Source: an uncultured Ruminococcus sp.
Lineage (GTDB): Bacteria; Bacillota; Clostridia; Oscillospirales; Acutalibacteraceae
Reading direction: 5' to 3'
Assembly (NCBI GenBank): GCA_964646975.1
Contig: CAZYGJ010000013.1
Span: 2,466-66,465, forward strand
Length of the DNA stretch: 64,000 bases
Position numbers and translations under genes: made by a program. This document shows, piece after piece, positions 2,291 through 55,189 of the stretch; position 1 is the stretch's first letter; every line of letters starts with the position of its first letter. The notes beneath the pieces were generated by a model. That model saw nothing but the letters and a program-made list of their open reading frames with translations. It had not been told where the DNA came from and did no database searches.

Positions 2291-3054
2291 TGTCGCTCCT
2301 TTGCAATGATTTCGCCCGCAAGCCGTGAATATGCCTCGCTGCCCTTGCAGGATTTGTCGTAATAGATAACCGGCATTCCAAAGCTCGGTGCTTCGGAAAG
2401 TCTGACGCCTCGTGTAATCACCGTGCCGAACACCTTGCCCGGAAAGAACTTTTTGACCTCCTCAACCACCTGCTGAGTAAGGTTGAGCCTGCCGTCGTAC
2501 ATCGTCAGCAACACGCCCTCCAGCTCGATTGAGCGGTTGTATCTGCGTTTGATTATTCTGACAGTACTCATAAGCTGGCTGAGTCCCTCAAGTGCGTAAT
2601 ATTCGCATTGAATCGGCACAATAAACGTGTCGGCAAGCGTGAGTGCGTTGGTTGTGATAAGCCCAAGCGACGGCGGACAGTCGATGATTATGTAGTCGTA
2701 ATACTGCTTTATCGGCAGGATTGCATCCTTTAAAAGAGCCTCTCTGTGAGGTCTTTCGGCTATCTCAAGCTCTGCCGCAGCAAGCTCTATGCCCGACGGC
2801 AAAACGTGCAGATTTTGATAAGGTGTGGTCAGCACGCATTGCTCGGCTTTTATCCCCTCAACAATGATGTTGTAGGTTGAATTTTGGATTTTGCTTTTGT
2901 CAATCGCAACTCCGCTTGTGGCATTGCCCTGCGGGTCGGCGTCGATAAGCAGAGTTTTTTTGCCTGCCGCACCAAGACAAGCGGCAAGATTTACAGCGGT
3001 AGTGGTTTTGCCTACTCCGCCCTTTTGGTTTGAAATAGCTATTACCTTTGCCAA
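2287..3054 (-). CDS. parA: ParA/Soj ATPase
   Basis: Deviant Walker A NQKGGVGKTTT, DADPQGNAT, IDCPPSLG, SEAPSFG. Confidence 0.96.
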   Translation of the reverse strand: MAKVIAISNQKGGVGKTTTAVNLAACLGAAGKKTLLIDADPQGNATSGVAIDKSKIQNSTYNIIVEGIKAEQCVLTTPYQNLHVLPSGIELAAAELEIAERPHREALLKDAILPIKQYYDYIIIDCPPSLGLITTNALTLADTFIVPIQCEYYALEGLSQLMSTVRIIKRRYNRSIELEGVLLTMYDGRLNLTQQVVEEVKKFFPGKVFGTVITRGVRLSEAPSFGMPVIYYDKSCKGSEAYSRLAGEIIAKERH

Positions 3055-3172
3055 AAAATCACCCTTCTACGTGTTTTCAACCCTATTTTTTAATAATTTC
3101 GTTACTTTTAAAAGTATAACACATTTGCAGAGGTTTTTAAAGGGTATAACGCAATTTTTATTATTTGTAATA

Positions 3173-3188
3173 TGTTTCACGTGAAACA
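3173..3188. promoter_or_regulatory. parS centromere site
   Basis: Perfect 16 bp palindrome TGTTTCACGTGAAACA matching the Firmicute parS consensus, just upstream of parA. Confidence 0.92.
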
Positions 3189-3263
3189 TTTTGCGTGAAA
3201 CTGTGTGGCGGTCAGTTTTGTTAGGTTCATAGATGTGGAAGGGTTGCAGATAAATTATGAAGC

Positions 3264-3880
3264 TGCTGCGACGGCAATCCCTCAGTCAGCTTCGCTGACA
3301 GCTCCCTTTGCACAAGAGAGCCTTGAAAGGTAGCACATTTTAATAACAATGATAGCTGTGAAAAAGTTTTCAGTTATTCTATTGTAGGAAATGTTATATT
3401 TAAATAATACGCTACTGCGACAGACAATCCCTCAGTCATTTTGCAGGCAAAATGACAGCTCCCTTTGCACAAGGGAGCCGTGAAAAGTTGCATATTTCGG
3501 ATAAATTGATAGATATGGAAAAGTTTTCTGATAGCTGAAAGTATAGTTTTTTTGCTCAACATTTCCGCAAAATCAAAGCCTCCCTTGTGTAAAGGGAGGT
3601 GGCAAAAATCGAAGATTTTTGACGGAGGGATTGAAAGCGTTTATGTTAGATGAACGTTAAAATTTAAAACCAAAGCTTCCACACGCACCAAGCCCTCACT
3701 TGAGGGAGGTGGCACGACGAAAGTCGTGACGGAAGGGTGAGCAAAGGAAATGGAGTTAATCAGTTACCCAAAATCATCATTGAGGGAATAAAGCTTCATA
3801 ATCACGGAAGCAATGCAGTGTGCGGACGGGTGTAATTTTTTAAAAATATATCAAACTCAACTGCGGTGAAATGCACTAAA
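3264..3880. repeat. Mosaic REP-like array 1
   Basis: Double-hairpin repeats at 3275-3322 and 3425-3479 (+), 3578-3633 and 3692-3741 (-), ~80 bp module near 3812-3877, linkers shared with the other arrays. Confidence 0.9.
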
Positions 3881-3995
3881 AGCAAAGAACCGTACAGGGG
3901 TCTGTACGGTTCTTCGCAAGGGGTTAGATAAGGAAATGGGTATGAGTGGAACGGATGCTTTCGCATCCAAGTGGAAAGTTAGTTAAACCGCCGAT

Positions 3996-4829
3996 TCAGG
4001 CGGATTTGTCGCTGTTTGACACACGCTTTTTCGGAATCCTGATTGTGTATTCAATAAAATTTTCGTTGTCTGTTTTGTTTGATTGAGCGTTAATTCCCGA
4101 AAGCCTCATCGTGTCAATAGCTTTGTTGATTGTGTTTAAAAAAATTCTTACGTCTTTTATCACCGCTTTACTGCTGCCCTGTTTTTTGTCGATTTTGGGG
4201 CTTTGTGTTGTTGTTGCACAGATTAGGCTCTCGGCTTGCCCAACGTTGAGGTTGTCGGAGATTATCCTTGACAATACTTCTCGCCGCAAATGCTCGTCCT
4301 CGATTTTCAGCAACGCTCGTGCGTGCCGTTCGGTGAGGTTGGAGCTTTCGATAAGCTCCTGTTCCTCGTATGTAAGCCTCAAAAGTCGCAGTTTGTTGGC
4401 TATGGTGGATTGCGATTTTCCGAGCTTGCGTGCTGTTTGCTCCTGAGTCAGACCATAACGGCGAATCAGCTTTGAAATTCCTCTTGCTTCCTCAAAAAAT
4501 CCGAGGTCGCAACGCTGGAGATTTTCAAGCAGAGCATAAACCGCCGATTCCTTGTCTGTGCATTTGATTATGATACAGGGAACTTTTTTCAGCCCTGCCG
4601 CAACCGCCGCCCTGAGCCGACGCTCGCCTGCAATCAGCTCGAACTCGGTTGCAGTTGCTTTTCGCACGGTTAGCGGCTGCAAAATTCCGTTTTCGGCTAT
4701 TGACTGTGAGAGCCTTGCAAGCTGTTCGGCATCAAATTGCTTGCGTGGTTGGGCTTTGTTCGGTCGAATTTTAATTATCGGTATTTCAGAGATTATGTTT
4801 TCGTTTTTAACTAAAAAATTCAACCGCAT
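3996..4829 (-). CDS. noc: ParB-family protein, Noc-like
   Basis: QPRKQF, GILQPLTVR, AGERRLRA, ENLQRCDL; canonical position between rsmG and parA. Confidence 0.75.
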   Translation of the reverse strand: MRLNFLVKNENIISEIPIIKIRPNKAQPRKQFDAEQLARLSQSIAENGILQPLTVRKATATEFELIAGERRLRAAVAAGLKKVPCIIIKCTDKESAVYALLENLQRCDLGFFEEARGISKLIRRYGLTQEQTARKLGKSQSTIANKLRLLRLTYEEQELIESSNLTERHARALLKIEDEHLRREVLSRIISDNLNVGQAESLICATTTQSPKIDKKQGSSKAVIKDVRIFLNTINKAIDTMRLSGINAQSNKTDNENFIEYTIRIPKKRVSNSDKSA

Positions 4830-11919: not shown

Positions 11920-11993
11920 ACTGAAAACCTCCCTTCAAAATATAACCTTGCAATATAGCATTATACCTTAGTTTTGCGTTTTCGTCAACACTT

Positions 11994-13372
11994 TTTTGCA
12001 TTTTTGTACATTTCACCGCAGGAATGTTTGATGTGCTTTCAAAGGCGTAAACACGTCCGAACACTGCATCTAATTCAAACATTTTTGTGCATTTCACCGC
12101 AGGAAGCTTTGATGTGCTTTCAAAGCTATGAACTCGTCCTAATACTGCATTTAAGTTATAATTTAGATGTCACTTTTCAAGGCTCTCTTGTGCAAAGGGA
12201 GTTTTTGTGCATTTCATCGCAGTAATGTTTGATGTGATTTCAAAGGCGTAAACACGTCCAAACACTGCATTTAATTCAAGCCTTTTGCCTACAAAATGAC
12301 TGAGGGATTGCCTGTCGCAGTAGCGTATTATTTAAATTTAACATTTTCTACAATAGAATAACTGAAAACTTTTTCACAGCTATCATTGTTATTGAAATAT
12401 GAACACTTCCAAGGCTCCCGCTTGAGGGGAGCTGTCAGCGAAGCTGACTGATGGGTGGACACTGCATTACTTCCGTGATTATGAAGCTTTATTCCCTCAA
12501 TAATGTTTTTGAAAAAATTTTAACTCCATTCTCTCAGCTCACCCTTCCGTCACGACTTTCGTCGTGCCACCCTCCCTCAAGTGAGGGCTTGGTGCGTATG
12601 GAATTTTTTGCTTGAAAATCTGACGCTAATCTAACAGAAATGTTTACAATCCCTCCGACAAAAATTTTTGTCTATTCAGCGTAGGCAGGTTATATTTAAA
12701 TCCAACATAACATTCTCGTCCTAATACCACATTTAGTTCAAGCATTTTTGCCACCTCCCTTTACACAAGGGAGGCTTTGATTTTGCGGAAATGTTGAGCA
12801 AAAAAACTATACTTTCAGCTATCAGAAAACTTTTCCATATCTATCAATTTATCCGAAATATGCAACTTTTCACGGCTCCCTTGTGCAAAGGGAGCTGTCA
12901 TTTTGTCTACAAAATGACTGAGGGATTGCCTGTCGCAGTAGCGTATTATTTAAATTTAACATTTCCTTAGCTCACCCTTCCGTCACGACTTCGTCGTGCC
13001 ACCCTCCCTCAAGTGAGGGCTTGGTGCGTATGGAATTTTTTGCTTGAAAATCTGACGCTAATCTAACAGAAACGCTTTCAATCCCTCCGACAAAAATTTT
13101 TGTCTATTCAGCGTAGGCAGGTTATATTTAAATCCAACATAACATTCTCGTCCTAATACTGCATTTAATTCAAGCATTTTTGCCACCTCCCTTTACACAA
13201 GGGAGTTTTTGTGCATTTCATCGCAGTTGTGTTTGATAATAATTCAAAGTTTACACCCGTCCGCACACTGCATTTTGGTTATAATTTAAATGTCACTTTC
13301 CAAGGCTATCTTTATTATTGAAATGTGCTACCTTCCAAGGCTCTCTTGTGCAAAGGGAGTTTTGCCCATTTC
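11994..13372. repeat. Mosaic REP-like array 2 (largest)
   Basis: Tandem 81 bp modules at 12000 and 12081; about 8 whole or partial double-hairpin repeats in both orientations; internal ~235 bp near-duplication (12537-12770 vs 12970-13203). Confidence 0.92.
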
Positions 13373-13459: not shown

Positions 13460-14992
<1,533 letters not shown>

Positions 14993-15004
14993 AGGATTGA
15001 TATT

Positions 15005-15961
15005 ATGTATAGACTTGGCATAGACCTCGGCGGCACAAACATCGTAGCAGGTGTTGTTGACGACGTAAAGCACAAAATCATTGCAAAGGCTTCGTGCAAA
15101 ACCGCAGTTCCTCGCCCCGAAAGCGAAATCTGCGACAGTATGGCAGAGGTTGCCCTCAAAGCCATTGAAAAAGCAAAGCTGACAATCAACGATATTAAAT
15201 CAGTCGGAATCGGCGTTCCCGGTGCGGTTAACCCAAAAACGGGCGTTATTGAATATTCGGCAAACCTTTTCTTCCATAACTGGGAAGTTGTTAAGATGAT
15301 GGAAGAAAGGCTCAACAAAAAGGTTTTCATCGAAAACGACGCAAACGCCGCAGCCTTGGGCGAGTTTCTTGCAGGAAGTGCAAAGGGCTCAAAAAATGCG
15401 GTTGCAATCACTCTCGGAACAGGCGTCGGCGGCGGCATTATCATTGACGGCAAAATTTACAGCGGCTCAAACTATGCAGGTGCAGAGCTTGGCCATATGG
15501 TAATTGTTAAGGACGGCAAAAAATGTGCCTGCGGCAGACTCGGTTGCTGGGAAGCCTACGCTTCGGCAACGGGACTCATCAGCCTTACCAAAGAAAAAAT
15601 CCTTTCCGAAAAGCTTGAATTCAGCTATATGCTCAAAATGTGCGACGGCGACATCAACAAGGTTGACGGCAGAACAGCGTTTGACGCTATGCGTGACGGC
15701 GACCCCACAGCAAAAGCCGTTGTTGAGGAGTACCTCAGCTACCTTGCCTGCGGACTTGTCAATATCATCAACATCTTCCAGCCCGATGTGCTTTGTCTGG
15801 GCGGAGGAATTGCAAACGAGGGCGAAAATCTCCTTGCACCGCTTCGTGCAATAATCGAGAGAGAACGCTACACCAAGCACAACGACAAGCAAACCGTTAT
15901 CTGCAAATGCACCCTCGGCAACGACGCCGGAATCATCGGTGCGGCTAACTGCTACAACTGA
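15005..15961 (+). CDS. ROK family sugar kinase (glucokinase-like)
   Basis: GIDLGGT, ENDANAAALGE, TLGTGVGGG, ELGH, CACGRLGCWE. Confidence 0.92.
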   Translation: MYRLGIDLGGTNIVAGVVDDVKHKIIAKASCKTAVPRPESEICDSMAEVALKAIEKAKLTINDIKSVGIGVPGAVNPKTGVIEYSANLFFHNWEVVKMMEERLNKKVFIENDANAAALGEFLAGSAKGSKNAVAITLGTGVGGGIIIDGKIYSGSNYAGAELGHMVIVKDGKKCACGRLGCWEAYASATGLISLTKEKILSEKLEFSYMLKMCDGDINKVDGRTAFDAMRDGDPTAKAVVEEYLSYLACGLVNIINIFQPDVLCLGGGIANEGENLLAPLRAIIERERYTKHNDKQTVICKCTLGNDAGIIGAANCYN

Positions 15962-15996: not shown

Positions 15997-16030
15997 CTGA
16001 CTTGCTCGAAGTAAAGCAGGTCAGTTTTTT
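15997..16030 (+). terminator. Rho-independent terminator after guaB-ROK
   Basis: CTGACTTGCT-loop-AGCAGGTCAG followed by a T tract. Confidence 0.7.
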
Positions 16031-16035
16031 GCGTC

Positions 16036-17090
16036 TTTTGCCTATTCAACGCAGGTGGATTGTCAGCGTTTCTGTTAGATTAGCGTCAGATTTTCAAGCA
16101 AAAAATTCCATACGCACCAAGCCCTCACTTGAGGGAGGGTGGCACGACGAAGTCGTGACGGAAGGGTGAGTTGAGAGAATGGAGTTAAAATTTTTTCAAA
16201 AACATTATTGAGGGAATAAAGCTTCATAATCACGGAAGTAATGCAGTGTCCACCCATCAGTCAGCTTCGCTGACAGCTCCCCTCAAGCGGGAGCCTTGGA
16301 AGTGTTCATATTTCAATAACAATGATAGCTGTGAAAAAGTTTTCAGTTATTCTATTGTAGAAAATGTTAAATTTAAATAATACGCTACTGCGACAGGCAA
16401 TCCCTCAGTCATTTTGTAGACAAAATGACAGCTCCCTTTGCACAAGGGAGCCGTGAAAAGTTGCATATTTCGGATAAATTGATAGCTGTGGAAAAGTTTT
16501 CTGATAAATTAAACCTTAGATTTTAGTTGAACATTTCCGTAAAATCAAAGCCTCCCTTGTGTAAAGGGAGGTGGCAAAATGCTTGAATTAAATGCAGTGT
16601 TAGAACGTGAATGTTATGTTGGATTTAAATATAACCTGCCTACGCTGAATAGACAAAAATTTTTGTCGGAGGGATTGAAAGCGTTTCTGTTAGATTAGCG
16701 TCAGATTTTCAAGCAAAAAATTCCATACGCACCAAGCCCTCACTTGAGGGAGGGTGGCACGACGAAGTCGTGACGGAAGGGTGAGCTAAGGAAATGTTAA
16801 ATTTAAATAATACGCTACTGCGACAGGCAATCCCTCAGTCATTTTGTAGACAAAATGACAGCTCCCTTTGCACAAGGGAGCCTTGGAAAGTGACATCTAA
16901 ATTATAACCAAAATGCAGTGTTCGGACGTGTTTACGCCTTTGAAATCACATTAAACCTACCTACGCTGAAATACACAAAAACGTTTGAATTAAATGCAGT
17001 GTGCGGACGTGTTCACAGTTTTGAAAACACATTAAACTTAACTGCGGTGAAATGCACAAAAATGCTTGAATTTCGCCGCAGTAATGTTTA
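16036..17090. repeat. Mosaic REP-like array 3
   Basis: Same modules as array 2 in opposite overall orientation; 16070-16425 is nearly the reverse complement of 12283-12639. Confidence 0.92.
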
Positions 17091-17099
17091 ATATTCTTT

Positions 17100-17597
17100 T
17101 CAAATCCGTGTCGACACTTGCAAATCCTTAATATACCTGACGTCGCAGGCAAAATGCTCTGTTTTTGTCAAAGGCACAGCTATGCGTTCAAAGCCGTATT
17201 TCTCATAAAATCTTTGAGCTGCTTTCATATTATCAAGCGTTTCCAAATAGCATTTATCGTAAAATTCGGCGGCAAAGCTCAACGCCTTGCTCATCAGCTT
17301 GCCAGCCACGCCCGTGCCTCTTGCTTGGGGCAGGCAATACATTTTTTGCAGCTCGCACACATTTTGGGTATCACCGAGCTTTCCGATTCCCACGCCGCCA
17401 ACGATATTTCCCTGCTCATCTACTGCCACCCAATATTTGGAGCCGACGGCGTTATAAACCTCTGAAAATCGGCACAAATCGGGGTCTGCCCAAGCCGTTC
17501 CGTCGTGGTCTGCTCCAAACTCAACCAAGCAAGCCCTGATGACCGCCTCAACCTCGCTGTTGTCCTTTTCTTCAATTTCTCTGATTATATATTGCAA
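17100..17597 (-). CDS. GNAT family N-acetyltransferase
   Basis: CELQKMY..QARGTGVA acetyl-CoA motif, LETL..AQRFYEKYGF; probable TTG start at 17597. Confidence 0.88.
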   Translation of the reverse strand: MQYIIREIEEKDNSEVEAVIRACLVEFGADHDGTAWADPDLCRFSEVYNAVGSKYWVAVDEQGNIVGGVGIGKLGDTQNVCELQKMYCLPQARGTGVAGKLMSKALSFAAEFYDKCYLETLDNMKAAQRFYEKYGFERIAVPLTKTEHFACDVRYIKDLQVSTRI

Positions 17598-17675: not shown

Positions 17676-17763
17676 TGGTGCCGGTGACCGGACTTGAACC
17701 GGTACGGAGTATTAGTCCGAGGGATTTTAAGTCCCTTGTGTCTGCCTATTCCACCACACCGGC
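17676..17763 (-). tRNA. tRNA-Leu(TAA)
   Basis: Cloverleaf with long variable arm, anticodon loop CT-TAA-AA, encoded CCA. Confidence 0.95.
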
Positions 17764-17774
17764 ATAAAAAAGTT

Positions 17775-17849
17775 TGGTGACCCGGACGAGAATCGAACTC
17801 GTGTTACCGCCGTGAAAGGGCGGTGTCTTAACCGCTTGACCACCGGGCC
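17775..17849 (-). tRNA. tRNA-Glu(TTC)
   Basis: GGCCCGGTGGTCAAGCGGTTAAGACACCGCCCTTTCACGGCGG...CACCA. Confidence 0.96.
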
Positions 17850-17854
17850 GGATT

Positions 17855-17931
17855 TGGTAGCGGAAATAGGACTTGAACCTACGACACTTCGGGTATGAAC
17901 CGAATGCTCTAGCCAGCTGAGCTATTCCGCC
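17855..17931 (-). tRNA. tRNA-Met(CAT), elongator type
   Basis: GGCGGAATAGCTCAGCTGGCTAGAGC..TTCATAC..GCTACCA; paired first base, not initiator-like. Confidence 0.9.
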
Positions 17932-18767: not shown

Positions 18768-21308
18768 TTATTCGTTCACTTCGGAATTATCGGAATTTTC
18801 AGCATCGTCGGCAACCTCTGCCGTCTTCTCACCGCTTTCCTCGGTCGGCTCTGTGCTTTCCTCCTCGGCTTCGTGCGGAGCACGAGCCACAGTCACAACC
18901 TTGTCGCCGTCGCCTGTTTTCATCAGCGTAACGCCCTTTGCGGGACGTGAACAAATTCTGATGGTTTCGGCGGCAATTCTGATGATAATTCCGTCCTGAG
19001 AAATGATTATAACGTCGTCGTCAAGGTCTACCACCTTGATTGCGGCAACATCGCCGTATTTTTCAACGTGATAGTTGGTAAGACCCTTGCCGCCTCTGCT
19101 TTGAACACGATAGTCGTCGGGACTTGAAAGTCTGCCGTAGCCTGTTTCGGACACGGTGAGAACATAACCGCCCTCACGCACAACGCTCATTCCCACAACG
19201 CAGTCGCCCTCCTTGAGCTTCAACGCCTTAACACCACGAGCCTGTCTGCCCATAGGACGAACGTCGGTTTCATTAAAGCGAATTGCAACGCCCTTTTTGG
19301 TTGCGACAATAACCTGACTGTTGCCGTCGGTCATTCTTACCCACGCAAGCTCGTCGCCGTCGTTTAATTCAAGTGCAATCAAGCCGCCCTTGCGTGCCGT
19401 GTTGTATGCACTGAGTGCAATCCTCTTGATAATGCCATGACGGGTTACCATAATCAGGTATTTTTCCTCGTCAAACTCAGGCACTCTTATCATTGAAGTC
19501 ACCTTTTCGTCGGTAGAAAGAGGCAAAAGATTAGCAATGTTAATGCCCTTTGACTGTCTGCTTCCTTCGGGAACTTCATAGCATTTAAGCCTGTAAACCC
19601 TGCCCTTGTCGGTAAAGAACAGAACATAGTCGTGCGAATTGATGATAAACATTTCGGAGGCAACGTCCTCCTCACGCCTTGACATACCCGAAACACCACG
19701 TCCGCCTCGGCGTTGCAGCTTGTAGGTGTCAACCGCAAGTCGCTTAACATAACCGAACTGAGTGAGCGTAAGCACACATTCCTCCTGCGGAATAAGGTCT
19801 TCAATGTCAACCTCACCGCTGACTGAGCAAATCTCGGTTCTTCTGGGGTCTGCATACTTGTTGCGAAGAGCGATAAGCTCCTCTTTAACGATTTCAAGCT
19901 TTCGTGTTTCGCTTGCAAGAATTTCAAGATATTCCTTAATCTTTGCCTGCAAAGTGGCAATTTCCTCGTCAATCTTGGCACGCTCCATATTTGTGAGCTG
20001 TCCCAATCGCATCTGAACAATCGCCTGAGCCTGAATCTCGTCAAGACCGAAGCGTTCCATAAGTGCGGCTCTTGCACTCGGCAAATCGGGGCTTTTGCGA
20101 ATCAATGCGATAACCTCGTCGATAAAGTCAATCGCAATCTTCAAGCCCTCCAAAATATGCTCTCTGTCCTGAGCCTTTTTAAGGTCAAACTCGGTGCGGC
20201 GGCGGATAACCTCCTCCTGAAACTCAATGTAGCACTTGAGCATTTCCTTGAGTGTAAGGATTTTCGGCTCGCCGTCAACAATGGCAAGCATAATCGCACC
20301 AAAGGTAGTTTGAAGCTGAGTATAAGAAAACAACTGGTTAAGCACGATTTGAGGCGAAGCGTCACGCTTTACGTCAATTTCAATGTGCATACCGATTCTG
20401 TCGGAGTGGTCTTCAATATTTGAAATGCCCTCAATCTTTTTGTCTTTAACAAGGTTTGCAATGGTTTCAATCAGCCTTGCCTTGTTCACCTTGTAGGGCA
20501 GCTCGGTTACAATAATCTTAAATCTGCCGTTTTTAGCCTCAACGATTTCGGTTTTGGCACGAACGGTAATCTTACCCCTACCTGTTGCATAAGCGGCTCT
20601 TATTCCGCTTCTGCCCATAATTATGCCGCCTGTCGGAAAGTCCGGACCCGGCAACGCCTCCATAAGCTCGGCAACCTCGGCGTCGGGGTTGTCAATCAGC
20701 GTGCAAACAGCGTCAATGGTTTCGCCCAGATTGTGGGGCGGAATTTCGGTTGCCATACCAACGGCAATACCGCTTGAACCGTTTACAAGCAGGTTTGGAA
20801 AACGGCTCGGCAAAACAACAGGCTCTTTAAGTCTGTCATCGTAGTTGGGGATAAAGTCAACTGTGTTTTTGTCGATGTCGGTGAGCATATCCATAGATAT
20901 TTTGCTCATTCTTGCTTCTGTGTAACGATAAGCAGCAGGCGGGTCACCGTCAACCGAACCAAAGTTTCCGTGACCGTCAACCAGCATATATCTCATCGAA
21001 AAGTCCTGAGCAAGTCGAACCATTGCGTCATAAACCGAGGTGTCACCGTGAGGGTGATACGAGCCCAGCACAGAACCAACGGTGTCGGCACATTTGTGGT
21101 AAGGCTTTGACGGCTCAAGACCTCTTTCAAACATTGTGTAGAGAATACGACGGTGAACAGGCTTCAAGCCGTCACGCACGTCGGGCAAGGCTCTTGAAAC
21201 GATAACACTCATCGAGTAATCAAGAAAGCTCTTACGCATCTCGCTTTGCAGGTCAACGTCAATTATTCTTTTTTCTGTCTGCTGTTCATTCATCTGTTCA
21301 TTATCCAT
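18768..21308 (-). CDS. gyrA: DNA gyrase subunit A
   Basis: [22 protein letters not shown] active-site region, GyrA-box QRRGGRG. Confidence 0.98.
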
Positions 21309-21335: not shown

Positions 21336-21925
21336 AATTTTGTGTATTTCAACGTAGTTAAATTTGATGTGTTTACAAAATAGTGAACGCGTCCTAACAC
21401 TGCATTTTGGTTATAATTTAGATGTCACTTTCCAAGGCTATCATTGTTATTGAAATGTGCTACCTTTCAAGGCTCCCGCTTGAGGGGAGCTGTCAGCGAA
21501 GCTGACTGAGGGGTGGACACTGCATTACTTCCGTGATTATGAAGCTTTATTCCCTCAATAATGTTTTTGAAAAAATTTTAACTCCATTCTCTCAACTCAC
21601 CCTTCCGTCACGACTTCGTCGTGCCACCCTCCCTCAAGTGAGGGCTTGGTGCGTGTGGAAGCTTTGGTTTTAAATTTTAACGTTCATATAACATAAACGC
21701 TTTCAATCCCTCCGACAAAAATTTTTGTCTATTCAGCGTAGGCAGGTTATATTTAAATTCAACATAACATTCACGTTCTAACACTGCATTTAATTCAAGC
21801 ATTTTTGCCACCTCCCTTTACACAAGGGAGGCTTGGATTTTGCGGAAATGTTGAGCGAAAAATAATACTTTCAGCTATCAGAAAACTTTTCCACAGCTAT
21901 CAACTAAACCAAAATATGCAACTTC
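21336..21925. repeat. Mosaic REP-like array 4
   Basis: ~80 bp module, hairpin repeats near 21474, 21595 and 21713-21833, shared linkers; fills the thioesterase-gyrA spacer. Confidence 0.9.
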
Positions 21926-22419: not shown

Positions 22420-24453
<2,034 letters not shown>

Positions 24454-24477: not shown

Positions 24478-25621
24478 AATTTTGTGTATTTCAACGTAGT
24501 TAAATTTGATATGTTTACAAAGTAGAGAATGCGTCCTAACACTGCATTTTGGTTATAATTAAAATGTCACTTTCCAAGGCTCCCTTGTGCAAAGGGAGTT
24601 TTTGTGCATTTCATCGCAGTAATGTTTGATGTGATTTCAAAGGCGTAAACACGTCCAAACACTGCATTTAATTCAAGCCTTTTGCCTGCAAAATGACTGA
24701 GGGATTGCTTTACCTCAATGTCTATATACTCACACACTCCACGAAAATTACTGTTTACTTCGTTATTAGGAATGCGAATTATTTTTAAGCTATACTCTTT
24801 AAGAAATTCAGAACGTTGTGCGTCCTTCTGAACATTACTGTCCTCGTAATGTTGTGAACCGTCCAATTCAATTACAAGCTTTGCTTCTGCACAATAAAAA
24901 TCTGCAATATATTTTCCGAGAATTTTTTGCCTTGAAAAACGTACGGGATATGAACGCAGAAAATCATACCAAAGATGCCTTTCTTCTTTTGTCATTTTTT
25001 TCCGCAGTTGCCTTGCAAACGGAACTAATTGCTTATTATGTTTTGGTTGCACAGCTACAATCCCTCCGTCAAAAATCTTCGATTTTTGCCACCTCCCTTT
25101 ACACAAGGGAGGCTTGAATTTTGCGGAAATGTTGAGCGAAAAATTATACTTTCAGCTATCAGAAAACTTTTCCACAGCTATCAATTTAATCTAAAGATAA
25201 AGCATTTCCAAGGCTCCCGCTTGAGGGGAGTTTTTGTGCATTTCATCGCAGTAATGTTTGATGTGATTTCAAAGGCGTAAACACGTCCAAACACTGCATT
25301 TAATTCAAGCCTTTTGCCTGCAAAATGACTGAGGGATTGCCTGTCGCAGTAACGTATTATTTAAATATGACATTTTCTACAATAGAATAACTGAAAACTT
25401 TTTCACAGCTATCATTGTTATTGAAATATGAACACTTCCAAGGCTCCCGCTTGAGGGGAGCTGTCAGCGAAGCTGACTGATGGGTGGACACTGCATTACT
25501 TCCGTGATTATGAAGCTTTATTCCCTCAATAATGTTTTTGAAAAAATTTTAACTCCATTCTCTCAACTCACCCTTCCGTCACGACTTCGTCGTGCCACCC
25601 TCCCTCAAGTGAGGGCTTGGT
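24478..25621. repeat. Mosaic REP-like array 5, containing the DUF559 gene
   Basis: Perfect 115 bp direct repeat 24594-24708 / 25226-25340; hairpin repeats on both sides of the nuclease ORF. Confidence 0.92.
24567..25052 (-). CDS. DUF559 (Vsr-like, PD-(D/E)XK) endonuclease embedded in a repeat array
   Basis: ARQLRKKMTKEERHLW..F.RQ..YIADFYC..KLVIELDGSQH..D..R..L..IIRIPN signature; probable GTG start at 25052; ~115 aa core plus a 46 aa repeat-encoded tail. Confidence 0.88.
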   Translation of the reverse strand: MQPKHNKQLVPFARQLRKKMTKEERHLWYDFLRSYPVRFSRQKILGKYIADFYCAEAKLVIELDGSQHYEDSNVQKDAQRSEFLKEYSLKIIRIPNNEVNSNFRGVCEYIDIEVKQSLSHFAGKRLELNAVFGRVYAFEITSNITAMKCTKTPFAQGSLGK

Positions 25622-26667: not shown

Positions 26668-26925
26668 TCAAAACCTGACGGTGCGGATTCTCTCTTTTAA
26701 CGTTTTTGCCGAAAGCTGTGTGATATACACAACCTCCTTGCCGTCCCGAACGCAAATAACAAAGGACTTGGGCAGCTCATACGAAACATTCACCACCTGT
26801 CCCGATTTTTCGGCGGCAGTCAAAAAGTCCCTTGTTTTTTTCGACACGGTGCAGGCATCAATGTCAAACATAGCCACAATGCTCTCGGCTTCAATCACAG
26901 TTTCCTGTCCCAGATGTAGATACAT
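26668..26925 (-). CDS. remB: DUF370 / extracellular matrix regulator RemB (YaaB)
   Basis: MYLHLGQETVI..PKSFVI..SAKTL; canonical position after recF; ATG at 26925. Confidence 0.85.
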   Translation of the reverse strand: MYLHLGQETVIEAESIVAMFDIDACTVSKKTRDFLTAAEKSGQVVNVSYELPKSFVICVRDGKEVVYITQLSAKTLKERIRTVRF

Positions 26926-28021
26926 CAATAATTTCCCCGTTTTCAACTTGAAAAATTTTGCCCTTTTTAAGCTGTTCCTTGTTGGATTTTTCACAGCAGG
27001 TAATAAATACCTGACAATCCTTAATCTCGTTGAGCAGAAAATCCTGACGTTCGCTGTCAATCTCAGACAGCACGTCATCAAGCAAAATCACAGGCTCCTC
27101 GCCCATTTTTTCTTTCAAAACAGCCGCTTCGGCAAGCTTCAGCGACAGCACGGCACTCCGCTGTTGCCCCTGAGAAGCAAAGGCCTTTGCATTTTTGCCG
27201 TTAATCAAAATTTCAATGTCGTCACGATGCGGTCCTGCATTGGTCACACCCGTGCGAATATCATCACGCCTGTTGTCCTCAAACTTTTTTCTCAGCTTTT
27301 GCTCAATTTGCGTCAAGCTGTCGTCAAGCTCAATTTCAGACGATGAAACATAGCGAATTTTTAAATCTTCCTTGTCCTTTGAAATGCCCCGATGATAAAT
27401 TTTTGCCTTTTCGGTCAGCATTTTTACATATTCAAGCCTCTGTTCAATGAGCATTGAGCCGTATTTTATCAGCGGCTCATCCCACACGCACAGGGTTTCT
27501 TCAAGCGACGGACGCTTGTAAATATCCTTTAAAAGAGAATTTCGCTGAACCAAAATGCGGTTAAACTTTGACAAAATTACCGCATTTCTCAGCCTTTCTC
27601 TGCAAATTGCACTGTCAATAAATCTTCGCCTTTCGGACGGCCCTCTTTTTATCAGGTTGAGGTGTTCGGGCGAAAACACAACGGCATTGAATTTTTCAAT
27701 CAACGCCGAGGCAGAGGGCTTTTCAACACCGTTGATAACCACCTGCTTTTTGTTTTGCAAAAACACAATTTCGGCACTTTGCTCACGGTCTTGACCGAAA
27801 AACCTCATCTCAATCTTCGTTTTTTGACAGCCAAACTTTATAACCTCGTTGTCCTTGGCACTTCTAAACGAATGACCTCCGCAAAACAGCCACAAAGCCT
27901 CAATAAGGTTGGTTTTGCCCTGAGCATTTTTGCCGTAGATTATGTTTACTCCGTCGCAGGGAGTGATTATATCGCTTTTAAGATTTCTGAAATTTTCTAC
28001 TTTAAGTGCAATTACTCTCAC
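26891..28021 (-). CDS. recF: DNA replication/repair protein RecF
   Basis: NFRN, GKNAQGKTN Walker A, GPHRDD, SQGQQRS, LLDDVLSE. Confidence 0.97.
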   Translation of the reverse strand: MRVIALKVENFRNLKSDIITPCDGVNIIYGKNAQGKTNLIEALWLFCGGHSFRSAKDNEVIKFGCQKTKIEMRFFGQDREQSAEIVFLQNKKQVVINGVEKPSASALIEKFNAVVFSPEHLNLIKRGPSERRRFIDSAICRERLRNAVILSKFNRILVQRNSLLKDIYKRPSLEETLCVWDEPLIKYGSMLIEQRLEYVKMLTEKAKIYHRGISKDKEDLKIRYVSSSEIELDDSLTQIEQKLRKKFEDNRRDDIRTGVTNAGPHRDDIEILINGKNAKAFASQGQQRSAVLSLKLAEAAVLKEKMGEEPVILLDDVLSEIDSERQDFLLNEIKDCQVFITCCEKSNKEQLKKGKIFQVENGEIIDVSTSGTGNCD

Positions 28022-28037
28022 TTTAAAAAATCAATCC

Positions 28038-28259
28038 CTACTGCTCGACGGTAATTTTTACATCTTCAAATTCAACAACGTCTCCACCACGCAGCTTTTT
28101 GCCACGCATAGTGCAAACCTCGCCGTTTACCTTTACCTCACCGTTTTGAATCACAAGCTTTGCCTCGCCGCCTGTCAGCGTAACTCCGCACAGCTTGAGC
28201 AAATCCTGCAATTTTATGTATTCGGTGTCAATTTTTATATTCTCAGCTCTCATTTGCAA
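28038..28259 (-). CDS. yaaA: S4-domain RNA-binding protein
   Basis: [24 protein letters not shown]; between dnaN and recF. Confidence 0.9.
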
Positions 28260-29349
28260 GCCTCATAGGAACAACAATGTTCAAAAAGCTGTCGCCCTTG
28301 ACAGGTTTAATGATAATCGGTGACTTTGAGCCGTTGAGTATCATTCTTATCTCGTCGGTGTCGGTGTTTTTGAGAGCGTCAATCATATATCTGTTGTTAA
28401 AGCCAATCTCAACGTCCTCTCCGATAATTTGCACGGAGATTTTGTCATTACCACTTCCGTTTGCTGAAGCACACGAAAACTTTATCTCATCATTTGCAAA
28501 TCTGCACCTTACGGGGCTTTGGATTCGCTCGTTATTCAAAAGAGCCATTCTTTCAACAGAGCTGATAAGGCTTCTTGTCGAGATTATAAGCTCGGTTTTT
28601 GTTTCGTTCGGAATAGCCGTGTTATAATCAATAAAGGTTCCCTCAATAAGTCGGGAAATAACACGGTAGTTTTTGATTTGAAACGCAATGTGACGCTTGC
28701 CGATGATAACATCAACATTTTCGTCGTCATCATTCAAAAGCTTCAGAACCTCAAGCTGAGTTTTGCCGGGTACAACAAAGGCTGTGTTTGATTGCGAATC
28801 AACGTTTTCACTGCGGATAGCCATTCTGTAACCGTCAATCGCAACGATTTTGAAAACGCCGTCCTCAATCTCATAAAGCGAGCCTGTGTAAATCGGCTTT
28901 GACATATTGTCGCTCACTGCATAAACCGTCTGCCTTATCATATCACGCAAAACCTTTGATTGCAGGGTGATAACATCTGTTTGCTCAAACGACGGCAAAT
29001 CGGGATATTCAACCGACGACATACCGATAACGCTGAAATCGGAGCTTCCCGATTTTACGTTTACAACCATCTTGTCGTTGATGTCAATGGTAACAATTTC
29101 TTCGGGCATATTACGCACGATGTCAAGAATGAGCTTTGCATTGATAACAAATTCGCCCTTTTCCTGAACTGTGGCTTCAATTTCCGTGGTTATGCCGATT
29201 TCAAGGTCATAGCCCGAAATATTCAGCCTGTCGTCCTCGCCTTTTATCAGCACACCCTCCAATGCGGGAATGGAGGCTTTTGAAGAAACAGCTCTCGAAA
29301 CATTTGAAATAGCACTTGATATATCTGTTCTGAAACACGAAAACTTCAC
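28243..29349 (-). CDS. dnaN: DNA polymerase III beta clamp
   Basis: 368 aa; [26 protein letters not shown]. Confidence 0.96.
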
Positions 29350-29586
29350 GCAGTGAAACCTCTCTTCTTTATATCATAATAATTATAGTAGTAGTAATAG
29401 GCAATGTTAAAATGTAGCAAAACCTCGAAAAACGGCTTGAACATTTCAAAAATCCGTCCACAAAACTTAAAGTCAAAATGTTTGAGTTTGTGAAATAAAA
29501 TTCAACAAAAATCAACATTCAACATTGAGTTAAAAGATGTGGAGATAATGTTAATGAAAATGTTAAAATTTTCAAGAGAATAAAAG
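29350..29586. other. Probable oriC unwinding region (dnaA-dnaN spacer)
   Basis: DnaA-trio run (minus strand CCTATTACTACTACTAT, ~29385-29401) beside an AT-rich tract; no canonical TTATCCACA boxes, but repeated WWTYAACA-like motifs. Confidence 0.7.
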
Positions 29587-30912
29587 CTATCTGTCACGGA
29601 TATTTTTGATGGTATCCTCAATAAGCTCCTTAACCTTTGTGTCCTTTTCCATCATCTTTTGAACCTTTTGCAGGGTATAGATGATTGTTGAATAGTGGCG
29701 GTTGCCGAATTCCTCACCGATGGCAACCATCGACAGGGTGGTCATTTCTCTTGTAATATAGATAGCAATGTGCCTTGCATTGCTGATGTTTGAGCTTCTG
29801 TTTTTTTGCGAGCGAATCTCGTCCGAGGAAATGCCGTAGGTTCTTGCAACCTCGTCAATGATTTTTTCCACGGTAACCTCAGGCGGAACGTCGTTGTTGA
29901 GAATGTCAGAAATAACCTCCTGAGCGGTGGAGAGCGTGGGCTTTTCGTTGTTTAAAAGCGACTTTGCCTTCAGCTTTTTCACCGTACCCTCAAGCTGGCG
30001 AATGTTTGACTTAATTCGTGATGCAATAAAGTTGCACACCTCGTCCGAAATTTCAATTCCGTCAAGCTCTGCCTTGCGTTTGATGATAGCAGTTCTTGTT
30101 TCAACATCGGGAGGCTGAATATCCGCAATAAGTCCTTGCTCAAAGCGTGAACGCAGACGGTCGTCAAGTGTTTTGATTTCAACGGGAGGACGGTCTGACG
30201 TAAGCACAATTTGCTTTTTGGCTTCATACAGGGTGTTAAAGGTGTGGAAAAACTCCTCCTGAGTGCTTTCCTTGCCGCCGATAAACTGAACGTCGTCCAC
30301 CAACAAAACATCGGCTTGTCTGTATTTTTGTCTGAACTCAATCATTTTGCCCAGCTTCAGAGATTCGATAAGCTCGTTTGTAAAGTCATCGCCCTTTATG
30401 TAGCAAATTTCCTTGTTTGGATAGGTTCTTTTGATTTCGTTGCCGATAGCGTAAAGCAGGTGAGTTTTGCCCAAGCCCGAATTGCCGTGCAAAAACAACG
30501 GGTTGTATGAATTTGACGGGTTTGTGGCAACGGAAAGACAGGCGGCGTGAGCAAACCTGTTTGATGAGCCTACAATAAAGGTATCAAAGGTGTATTCGTA
30601 GGTTGTGTCCTCAACCTTTTCTTCAGCCTTTGGTTTTGCGGTGTCGCTGTCGTCAAGCTCATCGGGAGTTTGTAACGCAATTATAAATTTATTCTGAAAA
30701 ATTGCCTCAAACGCTTTATTTAAAAGTGGAATATAGCAACGAGTGATTGTTTGACGGTGGAAATCATTAGGCACAAGAAGATAAGCTGTGTTTGATGAAA
30801 AATCAAGCCTTACGGGTTTAATTCTGCTTATCCAAGTGTTATATGCGACGTCGGTAATTTCATTTTTCAAATATGAGCAAATCAGCTCCCAAGCGTCCTG
30901 AAATGAATCCAT
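29587..30912 (-). CDS. dnaA: Chromosomal replication initiator DnaA
   Basis: YTFDTFIVG, NPLFLHGNSGLGKTHL, LLVDDVQF, RLRSRF, NIRQLEG. Confidence 0.98.
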   Translation of the reverse strand: MDSFQDAWELICSYLKNEITDVAYNTWISRIKPVRLDFSSNTAYLLVPNDFHRQTITRCYIPLLNKAFEAIFQNKFIIALQTPDELDDSDTAKPKAEEKVEDTTYEYTFDTFIVGSSNRFAHAACLSVATNPSNSYNPLFLHGNSGLGKTHLLYAIGNEIKRTYPNKEICYIKGDDFTNELIESLKLGKMIEFRQKYRQADVLLVDDVQFIGGKESTQEEFFHTFNTLYEAKKQIVLTSDRPPVEIKTLDDRLRSRFEQGLIADIQPPDVETRTAIIKRKAELDGIEISDEVCNFIASRIKSNIRQLEGTVKKLKAKSLLNNEKPTLSTAQEVISDILNNDVPPEVTVEKIIDEVARTYGISSDEIRSQKNRSSNISNARHIAIYITREMTTLSMVAIGEEFGNRHYSTIIYTLQKVQKMMEKDTKVKELIEDTIKNIRDR

Positions 30913-31969: not shown

Positions 31970-31981
31970 AAAAACAAATAT

Positions 31982-32580
31982 TTGCATTTTTGTGCATTTT
32001 TGTGCATTTCACCGCAGTAATCTTCGATATGTTTTCAAAGTAGTGAACACGTCTTGATACTGCATTTAATTCAAACGTTTTTGTGCATTTCAACGTAGTT
32101 AAATTTGATATGTTTACAAAGTAGTGAACACGTCCTAATACTGCATTTAAGTTATAATTTAGATGTCACTTTCCAAGGCTCCCTTGTGCAAAGGGAGCTG
32201 TCAGCGTAGCTGACTGAGGGATTGCCTGTCACAGTAGCGTATTATTTAAATATAACATTTCCTACAATAGAATAACTGAAAACTTTTTCACAGCTATCAT
32301 TGTTACTAAAATATGAACACTTCCAAGGCTCCCTTGTGCAAAGGGAGTTTTTGTGCATTTCAACGTAGTTAAATTTGATATGTTTTCAAAGTAGCGAACA
32401 CATCCGCACACTGCATTTTATTCAAGCATTTTTGCTTGCAAATGACTGAGGGATTGCCTGTCGCAGTAGCATATTATTTAAATATAACATTTCCTCAGCT
32501 CACCCTTCCGTCACGACTTCGTCGTGCCACCCTCCCTCAAGTGAGGGCTTGGTGCGTGCGAAAGCTTTTGATTTTGAAAA
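31982..32580. repeat. Mosaic REP-like array 6
   Basis: Tandem ~80 bp modules, hairpin repeats near 32177-32224, 32327 and 32499-32548; lies between convergent genes. Confidence 0.9.
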
Positions 32581-39999: not shown

Positions 40000-40075
40000 G
40001 CTGATATAGCTCAGGAGGTAGAGTGCGTCCTTGGTAAGGACGAGGTCACGGGTTCAAATCCCGTTATCAGCTCCA
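40000..40075 (+). tRNA. tRNA-Thr(GGT), integration site (attL)
   Basis: 76 nt cloverleaf, anticodon loop TT-GGT-AA, CCA; promoter TTGAAA-17-TATGAT at 39934-39962. Confidence 0.96.
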
Positions 40076-45327: not shown

Positions 45328-45477
45328 ACAGAAAACATAAATTATAGTGTATGCTTTTGAGGACGGAACGGGCAGCCGTAGCCCCTCGCAAGAGGTTAGG
45401 AGATGTGGGAGTGTCGCCCCACCAAAAACATACACACAACAGGCAAGCTCTGAAATATGAGCTTGCCTTTTCTTTTT
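45328..45477 (+). ncRNA. Candidate ~145 nt four-way-junction small RNA
   Basis: Closing stem 45347-45359 / 45423-45435, three inner hairpins including a GCAA tetraloop; terminator AGGCAAGCTC/GAGCTTGCCT plus T tract at 45441-45477. Confidence 0.65.
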
Positions 45478-46824: not shown

Positions 46825-47500
46825 GCCTCCATTTGATGAGGAAGGTAGCAAAAAAGCTTGAAGTAAATGCAGTGTGCGGACGTGTTTGCTGCTTTGAAAG
46901 TACATCAAATATTACTGTGATGAAATGCACAAAAACACCCCTCAAGAGGGAGCCTTGGAAATGCTTTATCTTTAGATTAAATTGATAGCTGTGGATAAGT
47001 TTTCTGTTCAATAAAACCTTAGATTATAGTTGAGCGTTTCTGTAAAATCCAAGCCTCCCTTGTGTAAAGGGAGGTGGCAAAAATCGAAGATTTTTGACGG
47101 AGGGATTGAAAGCGTTTTTGTTAGATTAACGTCAGATTTTCAAGCAAAAAATTCCGTCCGCACCATGCCCTCACTTGAGGGAGGGTGGCACGACGAAGTC
47201 GTGACGGAAGGGTGAGCTGAGGAAATGTCATATTTAAATAATATGCTAATGCGACGGCAATCCCTCAGTCATTTTGCAAGCAAAATGACAGCTCCCTTTG
47301 CACAAGGGAGCCTTGAAAAGTGACATCTAAATTATAACTTAAATGCAGTGTGCGGACGTGTTCACATCTTTGAAATCACATCAAACATTACTGCGATGAA
47401 ATGCACAAAAAAGCTTGAAGTAAATGCAGTGTGCGGACGTGTTTACGCCTTTAAAATCACATCAAATATTACTGCGGTGAAATGCACAAAAAAGCTTGAA
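46825..47500. repeat. Mosaic REP-like array 7
   Basis: Hairpin repeats near 47052-47108, 47167-47217 and 47257-47312; tandem ~80 bp modules 47340-47500. Confidence 0.9.
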
Positions 47501-51405: not shown

Positions 51406-51496
51406 ACCTTGAAACAATAACTTTGAACCAAAGGCAAATCTTAAATTTTAGACAAGCCTAAAAATTTTAAAAACCTAAGCGAAAGGAGACATATCT

Positions 51497-55112: not shown

Positions 55113-55189
<77 letters not shown>

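Follow-up and report, generated by a model that had tools for sequence, protein, structure and literature searches.

A DUF559 nuclease gene and its two inverted repeat units form a conserved module in gut Clostridia

We analysed a 64,000-nucleotide stretch of DNA from an uncultured Ruminococcus sp. (GenBank assembly GCA_964646975.1, contig CAZYGJ010000013.1, positions 2,466 to 66,465 of the forward strand; hereafter, the window) and found in it a small gene for a DUF559 nuclease that stands between two short repeat units, called L and R, which point away from it in opposite directions. The gene and its two inverted units are a conserved, co-evolving module across dozens of species. We give about an even chance to the reading that the three parts are one selfish module, in which the nuclease would act on the units and spread them. 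DUF559 is a very large family, and it may supply the partner that a class of orphan bacterial repeats has so far lacked, with the same pairing present in many Clostridia and another form of it in Escherichia coli. The physical, co-evolving link between DUF559 and repeats in two phyla provides a concrete, testable hypothesis both for the role of DUF559 and for the enzyme of the repeats. If true, it would be a nuclease-repeat symbiosis parallel to that of the repetitive extragenic palindromes (REPs) and their doublets (REPINs) with the REP-associated tyrosine transposases (RAYTs), with non-B DNA and an unrelated enzyme as its basis, and it would explain why Oscillospiraceae assemblies break at DUF559/repeat loci. 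A DUF559 nuclease that proved to be structure specific would be a new kind of DNA-structure-directed nuclease.

The module at its locus and across genomes

The gene lies in an open reading frame (ORF) at 24567-25106(-), between gyrB and two small ORFs. This ORF matched the Pfam family DUF559 (PF04480) at E=1.5e-28 and 99.3 bits (cut-off 20.6) over profile positions 4-106 of 109, and its only further Pfam matches were to MTES_1575 and DUF2726. The parts of the locus are as follows.

24567-25052, minus strand: DUF559 (PF04480) nuclease gene, with a GTG start at 25052, the domain core at 24708-25052, a read-through tail at 24570-24707 and a TGA stop at 24567-24569
25058-25113, plus strand: L-type unit upstream of the gene, with the tag CAATCCCTC at 25058-25066, hairpin 1 at 25070-25088 and hairpin 2 (CCTCCCTTTACACAAGGGAGG) at 25092-25112
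24578-24707, minus strand: R-type unit at the gene's 3' end, with the tag at 24699-24707 (codons Q-S-L), a hairpin-1 remnant at 24680-24697, an 81-nt M-module insertion at 24599-24679 and hairpin 2 at 24580-24598

The tags at 25058-25066(+) and 24699-24707(-) flank the gene and are each directed outward from it; the upstream tag begins at 25058, 5 nt from the GTG at 25052, and the downstream tag begins at 24707, inside the end of the ORF. These coordinates and motifs agree with an earlier sequence-only reading of this DNA, which had described a DUF559 ORF with outward-pointing repeats at 25058(+) and 24707(-) and had proposed that the upstream repeat supplies the Shine-Dalgarno sequence. The latter proposal was also borne out: the minus strand at the gene start reads GGAGGGATTGTAGCTGTG, its GGAGG coming from the reverse complement of the L unit, and the upstream unit therefore provides the ribosome-binding site for GTG 25052. 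This GTG is the true start, the alternative TTG at 25106 falling within the upstream unit, which is itself identical to the copies at 3580-3633 and 47055-47108. The gene's R unit in the window has a hairpin-1 variant that lacks an in-frame stop and is split by the 81-nt module, which belongs to a second repeat family, so that the window ORF reads on for 46 codons. The window copy is in this respect slightly damaged, and its protein keeps every family-invariant residue. A sister strain (contig L092) has an identical core protein, an intact R unit and a different number of M modules.

The same arrangement was found in other genomes. From the 548 relatives that a scan at one genome per species yielded, the best 80 loci were kept; their source taxa were Oscillospiraceae, Butyricicoccus, Faecousia, Limivicinus, Lawsonibacter and Acutalibacteraceae, together with a few bins labelled Anaerolineaceae. 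Homologues elsewhere thus carry flanking repeats as the sequence-only reading had anticipated: both L and R were present at the gene in 49 of the 80 loci, which came from different Clostridia metagenome-assembled genomes (MAGs), the L unit lying 2 nt before the start codon. In 54 loci, the distance between the L tag and the start codon was constant, and R was in frame at the 3' end. Nine arrays of such repeats in 64 kb would probably put any intergenic gene near repeats, and the adjacency might for this reason be attributed to chance. In 54 of 81 sources, however, exactly two units were present per approximately 20 kb, and both flanked the gene, which rules out a chance adjacency; the offsets are fixed in 49 of 80 loci, mostly with no other units nearby, and the tag lies inside conserved coding sequence. 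With these cross-genome data, the probability that a small gene merely came to lie in a repeat-rich intergenic region is close to nil.

The units are also built into the gene. More than 8000 homologues of 122-125 amino acids (aa), at about 80% identity, have the C terminus VKQSLSQ followed by LR, PAG or PDG and then the stop, and so the R tag and the start of hairpin 1 encode the last residues, the stop codon usually lying in hairpin 1. The 13-nt tag of the R unit comprises the conserved last codons K-Q-S-L-S-Q and was present exactly and in frame in 55 of 82 homologous genes. Third-codon positions were conserved at 0.80-0.89 within the tag (0.98-1.0 in tag-bearing genes) versus 0.57 in the gene body, which places the constraint on the nucleotide sequence and not on the peptide. 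In the flanks, more divergent paralogues had variant tags and hairpins that matched each other at the two ends (L031@7492, with CTCTCCCTC paired with CTCCCTCGTCAGAGGGAG; L068@13588; L073@8700). Hairpin peptides, such as PLxKG., APFxKGS and IPTALRAEPLSKGA, the last repeated three times, were encoded by many of the C-terminal tails and of the mis-called N-terminal extensions in 150 representatives of clusters formed at 50% identity.

Two side observations are recorded here. The same L and R units accompanied a DUF559 gene of 73-76% identity in five Anaerolineaceae-labelled (Chloroflexota) bins (L060, L062, L063, L067 and L069), by either horizontal transfer or binning contamination. One protein of 246 aa (P0001), from a 3.4-kb contig, is a tandem fusion of two DUF559 domains within a single ORF, and no unit separates the domains.

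The AlphaFold (AF2) model of the window protein was of high confidence, with a pLDDT of 87 and a pTM of 0.80. Its best matches in the PDB were, in order, 3HRL, an uncharacterised DUF559 protein, and the catalytic domain of the homing endonuclease I-Bth0305I (template modelling [TM] scores 0.66/0.82), which is the closest characterised fold; weaker matches were to PvuRts1I and AbaSI, Vsr, the R2 endonuclease and TnsA. The residues equivalent to D69, E80, D82 and H86 were invariant in both alignments examined (A1 and A2), giving the pattern D...E-x-D-G-x-x-H. On the modelled structure, the protein is a minimal Vsr-like PD-(D/E)XK nuclease in which the acidic and histidine residues are conserved. 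It is of the same fold family as Vsr and the EDxHD enzyme I-Bth0305I (Foldseek TM 0.65-0.66 on the query), and its acidic and histidine residues are in equivalent strands. Unlike those enzymes, DUF559 has no Dcm partner, group I intron, intein or extra DNA-binding domain, and its motif is E-x-D-x3-H, not EDxHD. The gene is free-standing and intergenic, its own motif reads E-L-D-G-S-Q-H, and with the EDxHD homing endonucleases it shares the fold alone. The Vsr model of Pfam did not match the protein. In all, 20,657 cluster representatives matched DUF559 at E<=0.001.

Unit structure and copy number

A compact unit is approximately 55 nt long and consists of the tag CAATCCCTC, a 9-nt pyrimidine run, followed by hairpin 1, which has a fixed GTC base and a free-to-vary stem, and by a near-invariant hairpin 2, CTCCCTT-TACAC/TGCAC-AAGGGAG. 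We surveyed 197 units from 81 sources (1.15 Mb). The sequence-only reading had treated the flanking copies as one repeat in two orientations; instead, the units form two separate classes, with class-specific linkers in 79 L and 104 R units. Units of the L class read tag-C-GTC...GCC-AC-hairpin 2-GC (90 units with 54 distinct hairpin-1 sequences), and those of the R class read tag-A-GTC...GAC-AG-hairpin 2-CC (105 units with 48 distinct hairpin-1 sequences). Across these distinct sequences, the inner positions of hairpin 1 showed 88-94% Watson-Crick pairing, compared to 64-74% in a null in which the 3' arms were swapped between units, and the stem is therefore kept by compensatory change. At stem position 2, a T.C mismatch was present in 35 of the 54 L variants, and T-A was present in 35 of the 48 R variants. 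G:T pairs were almost absent across about 450 stem positions, with no asymmetry between G:T and A:C and hence between strands, and their near-absence fits selection at the DNA level rather than at the RNA level.

The tag and hairpin 2 are also related to each other. The tag core TCCCTC mirrors the hairpin-2 arm CTCCCT. This allows it to be placed, as a third strand, parallel to the purine arm AGGGAG, and the purine-type equivalent can form from the complementary strand of the unit. Three-way co-variation was measured over 211 distinct units. The first triplet was T.T-A in 174 and C.C-G in 24, with few discordant, and the fifth was T.T-A in 178 and C.C-G in 8, with the half-change T.C-G in 8. 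A mirror model fits both variants, CAACCCCTC with CTCCCCTT and CAATCCCCC with CCCCCTTT, and a direct-repeat model does not. Such three-way mirror co-variation is the hallmark of an intrastrand triplex as in the BoxC/TM_ECO repeats of E. coli, and by this measure the unit looks like a BoxC/TM-type triplex motif with an extra hairpin, a description that we prefer to the label of REP-like used in the sequence-only reading. Folded as single-stranded DNA, the upstream L unit reached -13.1 kcal/mol (z=-6.3) and an intact R unit -15.5 kcal/mol (z=-6.7); the interrupted R unit at the window gene folded no better than its shuffles (z=-1.2).

Within the window, CAATCCCTC had 21 exact matches versus 0.28 expected, a number reached in 0 of 100 shuffles, and all 21 copies are confined to nine intergenic arrays. 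None of the other arrays has a stop-free stretch of more than 127 codons, which upholds the statement that the DUF559 gene is the only protein gene inside the nine. To measure copy number, the contigs of four metagenome and metatranscriptome runs were aligned to the locus. The depth of the DUF559 core equalled that of its single-copy flanks (46 versus 46-49 in run X1), and the summed depth of the units was 500-1900, or 10-40 times that of the flanks.

Units that serve a gene at both of its ends could also be no more than expression elements of the DUF559 transcript, namely, a 5' leader with the Shine-Dalgarno sequence and a 3' stabiliser or terminator, the gene-less copies being relics or useful terminators. 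L does give the Shine-Dalgarno sequence, R gives the stop codon and hairpins, and in one orientation hairpin 2 with the T run behind it obtains a terminator-like score; the gene was also present in one metatranscriptome run at a depth comparable to that of its neighbours, contig depth being a poor measure of expression. This explanation is nevertheless very unlikely. The stems are nearly free of G-U pairs and lack strand asymmetry, gene-less copies keep tags and hairpins in both orientations relative to the neighbouring genes, a simple leader or terminator does not account for the mirror co-variation, and the unit depth is far above what relics of a single-copy gene would give. Rfam yielded no match for the units, either at the gathering threshold or at E<=1, and a function at the RNA level was rejected on this result and on the absence of G:T versus A:C asymmetry.

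Gene-less forms, mobility and related systems

In other genomes, L and R also face each other across only 3-57 nt, with no gene between them. Such gene-less doublets were found on at least 120 metagenome contigs in an exact-pattern scan, and the 122 doublets in the contigs that were read had spacers of 13-29 nt, 103 of them with both hairpins. A doublet is an approximately 135-bp non-coding element with approximately 55-bp inverted ends and folds at -43 kcal/mol (z=-8.1). In this, doublets resemble miniature inverted-repeat transposable elements (MITEs); they differ from MITEs in that their copies are individually diverged with compensatory changes, and we know of no cognate DDE transposase. 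No target-site duplication was seen for doublets, and no empty site was found for one of them (L131) in four runs. The gene-less units of the window comprise nine intact and about ten interrupted copies, among which head-to-head L/R pairs share the geometry seen around the gene, as at 47055-47310; the arrangement of this pair recurs at 16576-16880 and 12876-13205. One isolate run (X50) contained a single-copy DUF559 gene with L and R plus 5-8 more units, including a doublet, and two further isolates had neither gene nor units. An empty allele of the window's own element was rejected because the read joints were other genomic unit copies, and the likeness of doublet spacers to the 5' and 3' ends of the gene (CTGCG is shared just before the tag) was suggestive but weak as a sign that the spacers originate there.

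The abundance of doublets without a gene would also be expected if a homing-type gene had invaded pre-existing L-R doublets, MITEs moved by another enzyme, by cutting their empty centre and being copied in by repair. The closest characterised fold is indeed I-Bth0305I, and the gene stands exactly between two tags, where gene-less doublets have their 13-29-nt spacer. Yet the gene is single copy although several head-to-head pairs are present in the same genome, no recognisable empty target was found beside an occupied one, and the gene takes its ribosome-binding site, last codons and stop from the units, which suggests a long joint evolution. We consider a homing origin quite unlikely.

DUF559-bearing DNA is mobile. 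The 76 analysable loci fell into 37 context groups, and the order recF-DUF559-gyrB is common to the window and four MAGs (L039, L046, L057 and L058), so that inheritance and relocation both apply to the gene. A 998-bp segment of Butyricicoccus pullicaecorum ET57 (L010:5859-6856), which contains a 76-aa ORF and the L-DUF559-R module, was skipped, at flank depth, in contigs from three independent runs. In the empty form, a terminator hairpin, GCTCCGC-GTAAAA-GCGGAGC-T6, is restored, and the insert lies in its loop with AAA on either side. The outer ends of the insert recurred in at least eleven other loci, each with a different cargo gene (L015, L021, L022, L025, L030, L038, L041, L046, L047, L050 and L085); an acetyltransferase-like ORF, a phosphatase-like ORF and a membrane protein are examples. 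The cassette is 1.0-1.4 kb long and encodes no transposase; besides the L-DUF559-R module, it has one cargo ORF, which varies, and a stretch that resembles a promoter. The Butyricicoccus element, at about 995-998 bp and with inverted repeats and a cargo gene, is in these features like the mobile insertion cassettes. Its outer ends are absent from the window, and no transposase was found among ten ORFs neighbouring the arrays there. Carriage by plasmids or phages was rejected: the plasmid collection gave no match, and only five short matches were obtained, in unannotated metagenomic phage records.

The organisation of the module resembles that of the REPtron, in which an HUH/Y1 tyrosine transposase (RAYT) is flanked by inverted, dispersed hairpin repeats, each REP being a 20-40-bp palindrome with a 5' GTAG tag. 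In both systems, a single-copy nuclease gene stands between inverted short tagged hairpin repeats, tens of gene-less copies are dispersed, often as inverted doublets and mosaic arrays, and each gene lineage has its own repeat variants. The coexistence of a single-copy gene with many gene-less units applies to the window and to X50 but not everywhere, since isolate X23 has none. The two systems differ in that the DUF559 enzyme is Vsr-like PD-(D/E)XK and not an HUH tyrosine transposase and that the unit has the tag CAATCCCTC followed by (C/A)GTC in place of GTAG, is approximately 55 nt long and has two hairpins and mirror (triplex) symmetry; no sign of single-strand transposition chemistry was found. 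The RAYT analogy of the sequence-only reading thus stood as regards genome organisation (a conserved flanked module, a single-copy gene and multicopy units), with an enzyme and a DNA structure that are not related to RAYT and REP.

A second comparison is with the CGTC-tagged REPs, which are stated to be without a dedicated transposase (Di Nocera et al. 2013, PMC3733652), and with the dRS3/NIME repeats of Neisseria. A CGTC-tagged REP has, after its tag, a stem of 8-9 bp that begins with A/T pairs, a loop of 4-5 nt and a CCA tail, and is mostly found as head-to-head dimers. Like these, the hairpin 1 of L units reads CGTC-stem-3-4 nt loop-stem-(G)CCA, and head-to-head dimers and clustered mosaics occur in both. 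Unlike the CGTC REPs, the clostridial units occur in different taxa, have a different stem length with no A/T at stem positions 1-2, and have an extra tag and a second hairpin, and R reads AGTC...GACAG. A 3HRL-family gene in the carA-carB region of Neisseria meningitidis lies between two TM-like units, CCTCTCTCCCCGTGGGAGAGAGTTAGAGAGAGGGC (L090:1430-1490 and 2020-2080). Because these are direct TM-like units and not inverted dRS3, the notion that DUF559 is the enzyme of CGTC REPs and dRS3 was not supported as a general link. A second hairpin repeat, CCCTCCCCCACGGGGGAGGG, is also present on both sides of this gene.

A third comparison is with a family described in the 1990s, the BoxC/PIT/TM repeats. 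BoxC/PIT/TM_ECO has the form CCCTCNCCC N3-6 GGGNGAGGG N3 GGGNGAGGG and 23 copies in strain MG1655, including five inverted pairs of types A and B; it forms a stable triplex in vitro, and no mobility genes were found nearby (PMC4666352). The likeness to the clostridial units lies in the succession of a pyrimidine block, its mirror and a purine block (here TCCCTC, CTCCCT and AGGGAG), in inverted A/B-type pairs, and in an intergenic location at tens of copies with no transposase nearby (Holder et al. 2015). Clostridial units differ in having a 15-27-nt hairpin for the 3-nt second loop, stems of 6-7 and not 9 triplets, and another sequence. Searches for short loops would therefore miss them. At three different loci, in E. 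coli, Enterobacter and Klebsiella, such a motif contains the end of a DUF559 gene and is followed by an inverted one. The E. coli gene, ycjD, ends ...SPSP* inside a degenerate TM, and TM_ECO no. 9 is 167 nt downstream. Enterobacter asburiae (L216) and Klebsiella (L220) carry a ycjD-family gene at other loci than E. coli; its end there, CCCTCACCC-CGG-CCCTCTCCC-TGA-..GGGAGAGGG, forms a full type B motif whose loop contains the stop codon, and an inverted type A motif comes next. These enterobacterial ycjD-linked motifs fit the TM_ECO consensus, and 67 of 108 ycjD-family tails have the ending PSPxPSP. The question of prior description raised by the sequence-only reading thus has two answers: CGTC REPs (PMC3733652) and TM_ECO (PMC4666352) are in the literature, and the link to DUF559 was not found, the literature searched here including no paper that links DUF559 or ycjD to repeats and none that contains the repeat sequences. 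Two local features of these loci are a duplicated ycjD 3' end between two TM motifs in E. coli K-12 (L093, 1351000-1351800) and three tandem 65-nt repeats at the same place in Klebsiella (L220).

We then compared repeat number with the presence of the gene in E. coli, where ycjD was found in 3378 of 5426 complete genomes and was absent from 38%. Over 59 evenly spread genomes, those with ycjD had a median of 22 matching places (range 13-34) and those without it a median of 9 (range 4-21), a contrast with p=6e-9, or 1.7e-4 after obvious clones were collapsed, in a test that ignores phylogeny. ST131 and LF82 had 4-6 places. The expectation of the sequence-only reading that repeat count should rise with the nuclease agrees, anecdotally, with X50 and, before any correction for phylogeny, with the E. 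coli contrast; X23, which has no extra units, and O157 run against it. No clean ycjD-less allele was obtained, the locus in LF82 and O157 holding instead a TetR-family gene next to fabI. Strains without ycjD are reported to carry the eefRABCD efflux operon at this sapF-fabI locus, and no element boundaries can therefore be read there.

Taken together, these results are best explained by the selfish module introduced above. The module would be that form of a repeat family which includes the gene, and the intergenic arrays would be filled by its other forms, without a gene, as single units, L-R doublets and mosaics. When a strand is melted, it would fold into an intrastrand triplex carrying a side hairpin; the small Vsr-like nuclease might recognise this structure, or the L-specific T.C mismatch, and nick there, and the break would be repaired by copying from another unit or array. 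Through such copying, units and multi-unit blocks would spread and be homogenised, and the gene would stay linked to its own sites. Functionally, this would be an analogue of RAYT with REPs and REPINs, with an enzyme and a DNA structure that are unrelated.

Several observations weigh against this explanation. To our knowledge, a lone PD-(D/E)XK nuclease does not transpose DNA. The insert of B. pullicaecorum, the only insertion whose ends were mapped, is bounded not by L and R but by outer inverted repeats of its own, 22 bp long (GG.GGGTGT.CGTAAAACAGTT), with a subterminal hairpin that varies after each, and L and R therefore need not be mobility ends. No DUF559 ORF was present in 770 kb of flanks of the doublet loci among the at least 120 contigs listed. 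Identical doublet spacers were mostly one locus in different samples, and recent proliferation, as tandem bursts, is evident only in the window, L066, L076 and L027; separate doublets differ in hairpin 1 and spacer, and many therefore look old. For this reason, the view in the sequence-only reading that gene-less arrays are progeny of the gene holds in part: REPIN-like head-to-head doublets are widespread, but most are unique and old-looking, with few recent bursts. Both units were absent in 10 of the 80 loci, and about a quarter were without one unit; in the Butyricicoccus isolate X23, the gene is accompanied by its own two units alone. The E. coli contrast follows phylogroups, and O157 (16 places) and some other strains without ycjD keep 12-21 copies. 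Finally, the flanking units in Neisseria are direct, not inverted.

The long near-identical blocks shared by arrays, which recombination would give, are also expected under a converse role in which DUF559 removes or resolves replication-stalling triplex and hairpin repeats that spread by recombination, slippage or an unlinked transposase, the gene being retained and regulated by its own units. TM_ECO forms a stable triplex in vitro, earlier work is stated to have shown that DNA polymerase can be blocked by the motif in vitro, and rearrangement among E. coli strains is more frequent at TM loci (PMC4666352). Vsr, to which the fold is related, is a repair enzyme, and the gene is single copy and partly syntenic (recF-DUF559-gyrB). 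Such a protective role accounts neither for the exact framing of the gene by a single L and a single R in genomes without other units nearby (54 of 81 sources; X23) nor for the correspondence, at both ends, between gene subfamilies and variants of tag and hairpin, and we regard it as fairly unlikely. An extension of the selfish-module explanation is possible and is put forward tentatively, with less confidence than the explanation itself: DUF559 nucleases might be the long-missing partner of intrastrand triplex-type repeats across phyla, recognising a folded triplex or hairpin in the DNA and propagating their own sites by break-and-copy repair. These repeats would comprise BoxC/PIT/TM_ECO in Enterobacteria, the TM-like NIME units in Neisseria and the tag-hairpin-hairpin units in gut Clostridia.

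Arrays and other features of the window

The nearest relatives of the window are Oscillospiraceae MAGs. It spans the replication-origin region, with gyrA (18768-21308), gyrB (22420-24450) and the recF/dnaN/dnaA ORFs (26891-30912) all on the minus strand, and parA and parB lie at 2287-4829. The repeat arrays are as follows.

3275-3633: array of compact gene-less units, with R at 3275-3320(+), R at 3425-3477(+) and L at 3580-3633(-)
11980-13360: mosaic array, with R at 12876-12928(-) and tags at 12302(-), 12647(+), 12920(-) and 13079(+); also M modules and B-variant units
16020-17100: mosaic array, with R at 16398-16450(+), R at 16828-16880(+), an L tag at 16669(-) and tandem M modules at 16879-17063
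21340-21920: array with an L tag at 21704(+), broken by an M-like module
25115-25621: rest of the array on the upstream side of the gene, with an interrupted R unit, tag 25331-25339(-), and B-variant units
31980-32570: array with R at 32179-32224(-), a tag at 32448(-) and M modules
47055-47310: gene-less head-to-head pair, with L at 47055-47108(-), a 149-nt core that holds a diverged L-like unit, and R at 47258-47310(+)
51010-51480: array with an L tag at 51290-51298(-), broken by an M module
63100-64000: array at the edge of the window, its tags being R at 63312(+), R at 63970(+) and a diverged L near 63811-63819(-)

Near-identical blocks of 276-321 nt at 98-99% identity are common to arrays (I1-I3), and 25226-25525 is 99% identical to 12197-12496 (D18).

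Two further kinds of repeat occur in these arrays. The M module (TTTTTGTGCATTTCACCGCAGTAATG...CACTGCATTTAATTCAAGC) is 81 nt long, is repeated in tandem at an 81-nt period and in many units stands as an insertion between hairpin 1 and hairpin 2; copies lie at 12007-12167, 16879-17063, 24485-24679, 32003-32163, 47309-47493 and elsewhere. It includes a long imperfect hairpin and is without an Rfam match; its copy number is unequal between the window and the sister strain L092. Diverged B-variant units, at 12440-12600, 16110-16290, 21585-21650 and 25440-25620, have the tags CACCCTTCC and CCACCCATCA and the hairpins CCCTCAAGTGAGGG and CTCCCCTCAAGCGGGAG, pair head-to-head around an 80-nt core and are possibly relics of another DUF559 subfamily.

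The 7096-bp metagenome contig of the sister strain (L092) links the IMPDH/ROK genes (window 13511-15961) to the DUF559-gyrB side (approximately 25110 downwards) via a repeat array. This junction could reflect a rearrangement between arrays in the genome itself, or the assembly could have formed a chimera across 300-nt repeats, and the junction was not used as evidence. Unrelated Rfam matches at the gathering threshold were to a skipping-rope RNA, a SAM riboswitch and five tRNAs (45352-45430(+), 55881-55967(-), 17679-17931(-), 40000-40072(+) and 55116-55189(-)). The ORF at 51497-53767(+), of 756 aa, contains at least eight tandem coding repeats of 78 nt (26 aa) at 52769-53520 (families D6 and D17).

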